From IMG/VR virus record IMGVR_UViG_3300013947_000375, positions 1 through 49,477 of that record: DNA of 49,477 bases, one strand, 5' to 3'. The notes below the pieces were generated by a model. The model was given only the letters and a program-made list of their open reading frames with translations. It was not told the origin of the DNA and ran no database searches. The position numbers and the translations under genes were made by a program. The stretch comes from a virus. Below are positions 823 to 1,371 of the stretch, in pieces (the first letter of the stretch is position 1; each line of letters begins with the position of its first letter).

Positions 823-1371
823 GTGAAAGTAGTGATTACTATGGAGCCTCTCAATGAAGAAGAGAGAAAATTTGCTGAGGAGAATCATAATCTCATTTAT
901 AGCTTCTTGAATCAATATAGACTCCCTGTGGAGGAGTGGTATGGAATAGCGGCTCTGGGGTATTTACAGGGGGTAAAAAATTATGATCCTAACAAGAAAA
1001 GCTTTTCAGCCTTTGTGTATCGCTGTATGCTCAATGCAGTACGTATGGAGATGAGAAGAAATAGACTCCGGAATCAGTGGCATAACGGTATAGTGAGTAT
1101 GGATATTACTGTGGGTCACTCTGGAGAGATAACAGTTAAGGATCTCATTCCTGATAAGGATGGGGTAGATTCTCTTGTGGAGTATAATGAGTATATCCGC
1201 CGGATTAATACACTCCCGAAAAAGGTAAAGGCTGTGGTAATACTGTTGATGCAGGGATATTCCCAAAAGGAGATTAGTGAGATCCTGGGCCATAGCCAAC
1301 CCTATATCAGTAAATTGGTAAACAGAGCACGAGGTCTTATCGAGAGGAATACTGAATCTCGTACGCCATAA
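823..1371 (+). CDS. sigma-70 family RNA polymerase sigma factor (compact; regions 2 and 4 only)
   Basis: region 2-like YLQGVKNYDPNKKSFSAFVYRCMLNAVRMEMRR; region 4 HTH LMQGYSQKEISEILGHSQPYISKLVNRA; GTG start at 823 after AAGGAAG (alternative ATG at 841). Confidence 0.75.
   Translation: MKVVITMEPLNEEERKFAEENHNLIYSFLNQYRLPVEEWYGIAALGYLQGVKNYDPNKKSFSAFVYRCMLNAVRMEMRRNRLRNQWHNGIVSMDITVGHSGEITVKDLIPDKDGVDSLVEYNEYIRRINTLPKKVKAVVILLMQGYSQKEISEILGHSQPYISKLVNRARGLIERNTESRTP

Follow-up and report, generated by a model that had tools for sequence, protein, structure and literature searches.

A two-domain sigma factor that behaves as exchangeable cargo in a phage genome and may be directed at the host

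The virus record IMGVR_UViG_3300013947_000375 (49,477 nucleotides (nt), analyzed over its full length and referred to here as the window) carries at positions 823..1371 of the plus strand an open reading frame (ORF) for a compact sigma-70-family protein. Sigma factors encoded by phages are usually read as temporal switches, and a first-pass annotation of this DNA had suggested that the protein drives phage late genes or mimics a sporulation sigma factor. The comparative genomics analyses presented here indicated that the temporal-switch reading fails for this phage: the same sigmaA-type promoters are found in relatives that lack the sigma gene, which argues that the protein is not a late-gene switch, and the same phage chassis occurs with or without the gene, which argues that the gene is cargo, most likely acting on the host. 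The explanation that best accounts for the whole of these observations, and in which we place about even confidence, is that of a functional two-domain sigma factor that is carried as optional cargo and is most likely host-directed. Sigma factors carried by phages are already known, and accessory and sporulation-like ones are among them; the clade described here, made up of sigma factors of ~170 amino acids (aa) from phages and prophages of gut Clostridia, is large and uncharacterized.

The sigma gene and the architecture of its product

The longest reading frame comprises 182 aa from GTG 823, and the domain residue numbers given in this work refer to that frame. The position of the ribosome-binding site (RBS) GAAGGTGA at 819-826 makes GTG 832 or ATG 841 a more likely start than the GTG at 823 proposed in the first-pass annotation, and the 179-aa version from GTG 832 is also the gene call in other assemblies of the same genome.

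The same annotation had described a compact sigma factor with regions 2 and 4 and without region 3, and this description held in all of the analyses. The Pfam profiles Sigma70_r2 (PF04542) and Sigma70_r4_2 (PF08281) matched residues 19-81 with 32.4 bits (cutoff 24) and residues 123-170 with 30.4 bits (cutoff 25.7), respectively. Additionally, the NCBIfam superfamily model TIGR02937 scored 61.1 bits against a cutoff of 42.9, and the protein matched PHROG 351, annotated as RNA polymerase sigma factor, at 5e-22. An AlphaFold2 model based on an alignment of 82 sequences reached a mean predicted local distance difference test (pLDDT) score of 90.8, with four helices at residues 12-89 (sigma2) and four at 115-175 (sigma4) joined by a 25-residue linker. 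All of the 50 best Foldseek matches in the PDB were sigma factors, with E-values down to 2e-6; the template-modeling scores of these matches were low (~0.3) because the two domains are differently oriented in the free model. The family profile aligned to residues 30-106 and 158-242 of Geobacillus sigmaF and skipped residues 107-157, which form the sigma3 domain, so that the absence of region 3 is demonstrated at the residue level. The sigma2 domain bears the family motif AEENHNLIYSFL, a core-binding helix and a region 2.3/2.4 helix, and a pro-sequence is absent from the protein.

An intact ORF with 99-100% identity recurs in at least four independent assemblies of metagenomes, and the composition of the cassette that contains it is ordinary for the genome, with no compositional foreignness detected. 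We regard the protein as almost certainly a real sigma-70-family factor, and its architecture suggests that it would bind the host core RNA polymerase.

An exchangeable slot in related phages

Close relatives of the phage were retrieved with TerL, PolA and capsid anchors, whereas a tail-gene anchor found none; their TerL proteins are 85-95% identical to that of the window and their genomes measure 48-51 kb. These relatives keep the gene order orf91, slot, dCMP deaminase, orf196, terS and terL. In seven close relatives the sigma protein found no match, and the slot is occupied instead by unrelated genes of 76-208 aa without known domains. Neither these slot genes nor orf91 and orf196 gave an informative match in Pfam or the PDB.

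The boundaries of the exchange were visible at the DNA level. Homology to the window in blastn comparisons stops at ~804-826 and resumes at ~1407-1448, and the conserved left flank up to ~804-826 includes the terminator of the preceding unit, the extended -10 promoter TGGTATAAT and the RBS. These breakpoints indicate that the swapped cassette is essentially the sigma ORF and that the slot promoter belongs to the conserved flank. The cassette (827..1406) is the sole stretch of the left region for which none of nine related contigs shows DNA homology. In four relatives, of whose length 100%, 100%, 97% and 95% was covered, the family profile and general sigma-70 profiles detected no two-domain sigma factor and found only orthologues of a small ORF that consists of a sigma4 domain. 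The first-pass annotation had assigned the sigma gene to the first rightward transcription unit, but the gene is preceded by the orf91 terminator (748-774) and then by its own promoter, TGGTATAAT, which probably drives whichever gene occupies the slot in a host-sigmaA-dependent manner.

A more distant lineage of the same supergroup, here called the L111 lineage (TerL ~65% identical), provided a second comparison. The family sigma is present in contigs L111 and L263 and absent from L113, L115 and L119, where homology resumes directly after the stop codon of the L111 sigma gene. In L117 and L118, the sigma homologue is divided into two pieces by an inserted segment of ~2.1 kb with a complete ISL3 transposase (DDE_Tnp_ISL3, 208 bits) and two small ORFs. 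This insert removes the sigma4 recognition helix, and the insertion sequence (IS) has knocked out the homologue in both contigs. In these genome comparisons, the sigma gene behaves as dispensable, horizontally exchanged cargo in a hypervariable slot.

Promoters of the phage and control of its late genes

Nearly every intergenic region in both arms of the genome contains a promoter of the form TTTACA (or TGGACA)-N17-(TGn)TATAAT, and neither a transcription unit without a sigmaA-type promoter nor a non-sigmaA promoter motif was found in the window. The density of sigmaA-type promoters was equal in the sigma-less relatives, at 5-7 per 22 kb compared to <0.5 in shuffled sequences. Ahead of the structural genes, the promoter at 12615 comes close to the sigmaA consensus and has an extended -10. 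The promoter scans of the window and of the relatives therefore agree with the first-pass annotation that the structural genes have sigmaA-like promoters and no special late consensus.

The region upstream of terS is kept almost base for base in eight sigma-less relatives. The conserved layout consists of the element AAAATCAAGAGTTT, a promoter of the form CATGGACAA-N17-TGGTAGtAT, a leader, a GC-rich hairpin, a run of five to six T residues and the terS RBS. An equivalent hairpin followed by a T-run occurs in 8/8 relatives with differing stems, and the folding energies of these hairpins ranged from -14.5 to -23.7 kcal/mol, compared to -6 to -12 kcal/mol for shuffled sequences. Conservation of the hairpin was judged by per-sequence folding; column-wise covariation in a MAFFT alignment was weak, as the variable stems misalign. 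The late control region (4104-4290) combines a sigmaA-type promoter with a leader terminator, an antitermination-type layout in which the sigma factor has no part and which suggests that antitermination controls the late genes; the analysis points to this arrangement as the real late control of the lineage. A candidate late-gene regulator or antiterminator is the product of orf196 (2235-2825, plus strand), a Cys-rich protein of PHROG 33402 that is encoded upstream of the late promoter and found in all relatives (52-85% identity).

Two short motifs were found to be enriched, ATCAAGAGT and TTTCCACA, and both occur equally in sigma-less relatives. Four copies of ATCAAGAGT occur in the window, compared to 0.8 expected, and three of them (361-369, 757-765 and 4110-4118) are located at promoters. 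In the early rightward promoter P354, the spacer encloses the copy at 361-369; the other two precede the start sites of the slot and late promoters by ~47 nt. Relatives hold 2-4 copies each in the same places, and the sequence AAATCAAGR is found also at 1594, 1626 and 4132. The placement of ATCAAGAGT suggests a possible site for a phage regulator that could repress one promoter and activate others.

None of the sequence elements considered as targets of the sigma factor was retained. The TGGACAA variant of the -35 element (at Spo0A_C, terS and HD), AAATCAAGR together with ATCAAGAGT, and the triple repeat of TTTCCACA were each rejected on account of their conservation in sigma-less relatives, and the 35-nt CCTCAC...TAATATAAT repeats were rejected on account of their presence in contig L097, which has no sigma gene. 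Inspection of the intergenic regions of the closest sigma-bearing phages, L001, L012, L013 and L015 (~170 kb), for a family-specific promoter revealed no recurrent motif.

A large family of compact sigma factors from gut Clostridia

An exhaustive phmmer search with a threshold of E<=1e-3 collected 3366 representative clusters, and one of E<=1e-10 left 705; their members are nearly all 160-190 aa long. The family shares the N-terminal motif LAEENHNLIYSFL and the near-invariant residues N21, H22, L24, I25, Y26, Y40 and A44, which belong to the core-binding segment of regions 2.1/2.2. The nearest homologue beyond this phage is only 40% identical. Members were located in 101 IMG/VR viral contigs of 30-175 kb and in 37 bacterial genomes, almost all of them gut Clostridia (Lachnospiraceae, Oscillospiraceae, Ruminococcus, Acetatifactor, Flintibacter and Roseburia). 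One copy lies within a prophage early operon adjoining the integrase/repressor switch, and another within the replication module of the virulent Enterocloster phage PMBT24. A near-identity DNA search of phage GenBank records matched nothing, and tblastn returned no similar Bacillus phage sigma at E<=1e-5 and no Bacillus-phage sporulation-like sigma among its matches.

Assignment of the protein to an established sigma class was assessed with NCBIfam equivalog models, and its scores stayed far below the cutoffs: 34-35 bits for the SigE models (cutoffs 339-349), 27-30 for SigK (252-299), 21 for SigF (321), 41 for SigBFG (234) and 30-33 for SigW (209-243). Every SigF/G/E/K/H cutoff was missed by about ten-fold. 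As a yardstick, a true cross-family score, that of SigE on the SigK model, amounts to 271 bits, and validated reference sigma factors score 381-518 bits on their equivalog models. The Pfam Sigma70_ECF profile (ECF, extracytoplasmic function) gave 19.2 bits, below its cutoff of 21.1. Compared with solved structures, the family profile scored highest on sigmaF (75 bits), followed by a Fusobacterium 'sigmaH' (67), sigmaB (61), sigmaA (~60) and FliA (49), and ECF sigma factors were absent from the 60 best PDB profile matches. Among individual cellular sigma factors, SigE of B. subtilis matched best, at 31 bits. Family members matched the SigF, SigG, SigE and SigK profiles more often than the ECF or SigH profiles, the last of which was matched by only 9 of the 82 members.

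The sigma-family tree that the first-pass annotation had envisaged was computed by neighbor-joining from distances over 170 columns with 100 bootstraps, and is coarse. Each of its B. subtilis and E. coli reference sequences passed its NCBIfam equivalog cutoff at full length; a database search baited with six B. subtilis sigma factors returned only SigF, and the SigF reference is 99% identical to a database entry. In this tree, the family and the PMBT24 sigma formed a clade of their own (91% bootstrap) that branched beside the group-3 cluster and outside SigE+SigK, SigF+SigG and the ECF pair SigW+RpoE (100% each). The family lay outside SigH as well and grouped with the Fusobacterium structure (PDB 3mzy) in 0 of 100 bootstraps. 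The protein thus appears group-3-like by sequence and ECF-like by architecture, in a separate phage-associated clade. No anti-sigma gene was seen beside the sigma gene, whose neighbors are orf91 and dCMP deaminase, and no conserved partner was seen in four homologue contexts; a novel small anti-sigma may be encoded next to the gene.

Proposed role of the sigma factor and alternative explanations

In the explanation that we favor, the sigma2-linker-sigma4 factor would associate with the core RNA polymerase of the host and guide it to promoters outside the phage's own core set. Its gene would be transcribed from the conserved, extended -10 slot promoter of the host sigmaA type, which serves different genes in sister phages. 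SigmaA-type promoters serve all of the replication, packaging, structural and lysis genes of the phage, and the late operon would be governed by its sigmaA promoter and leader terminator and not by the sigma factor. The protein could then divert a fraction of the host polymerase to promoters of the host, which we infer to be its targets, or compete with host alternative sigma factors. Plausibly, it would act together with truncated Spo0A and SpoIIID-like regulators on the stationary-phase or sporulation programs of a spore-forming gut Clostridia host. Genes for a Spo0A effector domain (Spo0A_C) and a SpoIIID-like protein co-occur with the sigma gene in this phage. Phage homologues of sigF and sigG alter host sporulation (PMC9429907), and gut phages carry truncated spo0A and spoIIID (PMC10294663). 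A host-directed role fits both this published evidence and the co-occurrence observed here. If host programs such as sporulation are indeed targeted, the family would represent a widespread lever on the persistence and transmission of spore-forming gut commensals, and the comparisons define a testable cargo slot in the phage lineage.

Several points weigh against a host-directed cargo role. No promoter, whether of the phage or of a host, could be assigned to the protein as a target. The nearest homologues (~40% identity) are found in phages of ~170 kb, and the PMBT24 homologue belongs to a replication module; homologues in large phages may run middle or late genes, and the ancestral role of the family could therefore be phage-directed. 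Additionally, the slot genes of sister phages have no recognizable function, so that the occupants of the slot may be functionally equivalent. A sigma factor that competes for core polymerase could also harm the phage's own sigmaA-dependent transcription, and the IS-disrupted contigs could be decaying prophages instead of viable phages. A bolder extension, which we consider rather doubtful, is that the sigma factor is one module of an exchangeable phage toolkit that controls host dormancy. Expressed from the cargo promoter, which is conserved, it would re-wire the sporulation or stationary-phase transcription of its gut Clostridia host jointly with the receiver-less Spo0A and the SpoIIID-like protein, and the ~170-aa clade would be an unrecognized class of host-directed phage sigma factors with their own promoter specificity.

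Amongst the other explanations is that the protein serves as a middle- or late-gene factor of the phage itself and replaces host sigmaA for the packaging, structural and lysis genes. In favor of such a role, the packaging/structural arm follows the gene and is probably expressed after it, early and replication genes surround the homologues of large virulent phages, a position typical of temporal switches, and PHROG 351 groups the protein with annotated phage sigma factors. The role is nevertheless decidedly unlikely, given that eight sigma-less relatives keep the sigmaA-like late promoter and the leader terminator, that the promoter at 12615 is near-consensus sigmaA with its extended -10, and that neither a non-sigmaA motif nor an orphan transcription unit was found. 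The first-pass suggestion that the protein drives late genes is further contradicted by two relatives covered at 100% that have no two-domain sigma factor, and by the L111 lineage, where homologues are absent or interrupted by ISL3. The other suggestion, mimicry of a sporulation sigma factor, has several points in its favor. The nearest cellular relatives of the protein are group-3 sigma factors with B. subtilis SigE as the best (31 bits, and 35 bits on the NCBIfam SigE model), sigmaF is the best PDB profile match, and profiles of the four sporulation sigma factors are those that family members match more often. The helix-turn-helix of sigma4, GHSQPYISKL, resembles GISQSYISRL of the validated SigE reference, the family is restricted to Clostridia, truncated Spo0A and SpoIIID-like genes are present in the phage, and the sigF/sigG homologues of Bacillus phages offer a precedent (PMC9429907). 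A true mimic of one host factor (sigmaE/K or sigmaF/G), reading the promoters of that factor and switching part of the sporulation regulon on or off, is still unlikely. The equivalog scores fall about ten-fold short where SigE reaches 271 bits on the SigK model, region 3 and a pro-sequence are both missing, the 91% clade lies outside SigE+K and SigF+G (each 100%), and no sporulation-like sigma of a Bacillus phage appeared among the tblastn matches.

Two further possibilities concern whether the protein initiates transcription, or has any role, at all. Region 2.3 of the family (consensus FSTYAYxCM) lacks the paired tryptophans of primary sigma factors, the separate sigma4-only ORF at 26177-26407 indicates that such domains serve as stand-alone regulators in this phage, and target promoters were not found. 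These features would suit a decoy that titrates core polymerase, a host anti-sigma or a regulator, or else a plain helix-turn-helix regulator built from sigma domains. ECF and group-3 sigma factors also lack the tryptophan pair and yet melt DNA, which counts against this idea. Both domains of the protein are, moreover, intact, confidently folded and conserved over hundreds of clusters, including the region 2.1/2.2 core-binding segment, and a role without initiation is in our view very improbable. That the gene is a neutral passenger or is decaying, with no role in this phage, would be in line with the patchy distribution of the family and the IS-disrupted copies in relatives, but is hardly credible for an intact ORF that is 99-100% identical in at least four independent assemblies, with a good RBS and promoter, genome-typical composition and very high model confidence.

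Comparison with known systems

A close published parallel is found in the sporulation-like sigma factors of Bacillota phages, such as gp128 of Bacillus phage Eldridge and the sigF/sigG homologues of Schwartz et al. 2022 (PMC9429907). These are likewise carried by phages of a spore-forming lineage as accessory and not core genes, and the best-TIGRFAM rule of that study would label the present protein 'SigE-like'. The two differ in that the published factors belong to the sigmaF/G clade and have retained region 3, whereas the present one forms a separate clade without it. Co-occurrence with other homologues of sporulation regulators has a counterpart in gut phages (PMC10294663).

Like SPO1 gp28 and gp33/34 and T4 gp55, the protein would re-program the core RNA polymerase of the host, and a host-sigmaA promoter would direct its expression. 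In SPO1 and T4, however, promoters of a distinctive non-sigmaA kind precede the middle and late genes, and the sigma factor is essential, while all units of the present phage are of sigmaA type and sister phages do without the gene. ECF sigma factors, for example SigW of B. subtilis and RpoE of E. coli, share the arrangement of sigma2, a short linker and sigma4 as well as a similar size (~180 aa), and the structural matches included the ECF factors sigmaH of M. tuberculosis and sigmaE of E. coli. In contrast to these, the present protein is closer to groups 1 and 3 by sequence, SigW and RpoE form their separate 100% clade, and no adjacent anti-sigma was seen. The compact sigmaH-type protein of Fusobacterium nucleatum (PDB 3mzy) is collinear, with profile positions 38-171 aligned to chain positions 13-154 at 67 bits and no gap the size of region 3. 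The best fold match was a model of B. subtilis SigH, yet only the 9 of 82 members noted above match the SigH profile, and no bootstrap replicate joined the family to 3mzy.

The sigma factor of PMBT24 (WDQ45495, noted as 'SigK'; PMC11035940) belongs to the same clade (91%), scores 49 bits and comes from a phage of a gut Lachnospiraceae host. It differs in its length of 214 aa, its identity of 27% and its location in the replication module of a 100-kb virulent phage, where it may be part of the core program; it is also uncharacterized.

Genome context and further features

The window represents a complete circular or permuted phage genome. Its bases 1-67 are identical to 49411-49477, and the same genome was recovered from other metagenomes as contigs of 49494 and 49433 nt that are opened elsewhere. 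The 'genome terminus' near which the first-pass annotation had placed the sigma gene is thus an assembly breakpoint, and the 67-nt duplication an assembly overlap. The gene is located ~0.8 kb from a divergent control region that separates two arms. The rightward arm contains orf91, the sigma gene, dCMP deaminase, orf196, Spo0A_C, four tRNA genes, terS, terL, portal, structural and lysis genes, and the leftward arm the replication and nucleotide-metabolism genes and the SpoIIID-like gene. No integrase was seen in the phage genome. The coordinates of the features discussed above are collected in Table 1.

Table 1. Coordinates of the sigma gene, its domains and the associated control elements (window positions unless a contig is named)
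Feature	Position	Strand	Description or basis
orf91	459-734		Upstream neighbor of the sigma gene; ends in an intrinsic terminator
Intrinsic terminator of the orf91 unit	748..784	+	Hairpin 748-774 followed by T-run; terminator scan; fold -15.6 kcal/mol
Extended -10 promoter TGGTATAAT of the slot	794..802	+	Sequence; within the conserved flank
RBS GAAGGTGA	819..826	+	5 nt 5' of GTG 832, 14 nt 5' of ATG 841
Exchangeable cassette	827..1406	+	blastn breakpoints; per-gene coverage table; unrelated slot genes in relatives
Sigma-70-family gene	832..1371	+	179 aa from GTG 832; 176 aa from ATG 841
Sigma2 domain, residues 12-89	856..1089	+	Pfam r2; AlphaFold2 helices; family alignment
25-residue linker in place of sigma3	1090..1164	+	AlphaFold2 model; gap in sigmaF alignment
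Sigma4 domain with helix-turn-helix GYSQKEISEILGHSQPYISKLVNRA	1165..1347	+	Pfam r4_2; AlphaFold2 model
Late (terS) promoter	4104..4155	+	Upstream element AAAATCAAGAGTTT; -35 TGGACA 4127-4132; extended -10 TGGTAGTAT 4147-4155
terS leader terminator	4200..4244	+	Hairpin 4200-4234 followed by T-run; -17.9 kcal/mol, shuffles -7.8
IS-split sigma homologue	L117 1723-4343; L118 3110-5736		Insertion sequence within phage genome

The loop of the orf91 terminator contains ATCAAGAGT, and the terminator is kept in relatives L091-L098. On the other side of the cassette, a non-coding block of ~210 nt (1407-1616) separates the sigma gene from dCMP deaminase. The block is conserved in all relatives and contains G-rich hairpins and an invariant triple repeat of TTTCCACA at 1537-1564; the window holds 11 copies of this motif, compared to 2.2 expected. 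As a structured RNA, the region 1372-1616 had no match in Rfam, and its covariation was weak and not supportive.

Tandem and inverted 35-nt repeats, GGTGAGGAGTTAGTCTAAACCTCACTAATATAATA, occupy positions 1-130 and 49376-49477 in the divergent control region. At the corresponding place, every related phage carries a repeat flavor of its own (TTCCCTAATA..., CCGTATATGCATATA and CGCACCTAATATA), and L097 shares both the repeat flavor of the window and the most similar orf339 (48281-49300, 64% identity). The repeats resemble iterons or operators whose sequence changes along with the protein that binds them.

The sigma4-only ORF (26177-26407, plus strand, 76 aa; Pfam Sigma70_r4, 40.9 bits, cutoff 24.1) is located past the lysis genes, with a terminator behind it; it has orthologues in several sigma-less relatives and may be a stand-alone regulator. 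The receiver-less Spo0A effector-domain gene (Pfam Spo0A_C; 2902-3483, plus strand) is specific to this phage at the DNA level; at the protein level, L091 and L093 have no more than weak homologues. The SpoIIID-like gene (44130-44354, minus strand, 74 aa) is conserved in 7 of the 9 related contigs.

A second cargo region (8123-10940, plus strand) lies within the late operon between portal and MuF and comprises orf204, orf147, orf232 and orf354; this block has no DNA homology in any of the nine related contigs. The adjoining MuF-like head protein (10955-12607, plus strand) is fused to an ADP-ribosyltransferase toxin domain (Pfam ADPrib_exo_Tox), and the other arm carries an ADP-ribosylglycohydrolase that is split into adjacent ORFs of 52 and 116 aa (45170-45708, minus strand). 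The nucleotide-metabolism set is unusually rich (1617-2147, 34634-39226 and 42465-43681) and includes dCMP deaminase, a ThyA-like enzyme, ThyX, a dUTPase_2-family protein, an HD hydrolase and a DNA polymerase A that has an N-terminal uracil-DNA-glycosylase-like domain. Together with a glucosyltransferase-like ORF (9194-9892), it may reflect modified thymidine or cytidine in the phage DNA. The four tRNA genes (3615-4021, plus strand; Met-CAT, Gly-TCC, Gln-TTG and Leu-TAG) have their own sigmaA-type promoter at 3488-3516 and a terminator at 4067-4091, and tRNA content varies among the relatives.

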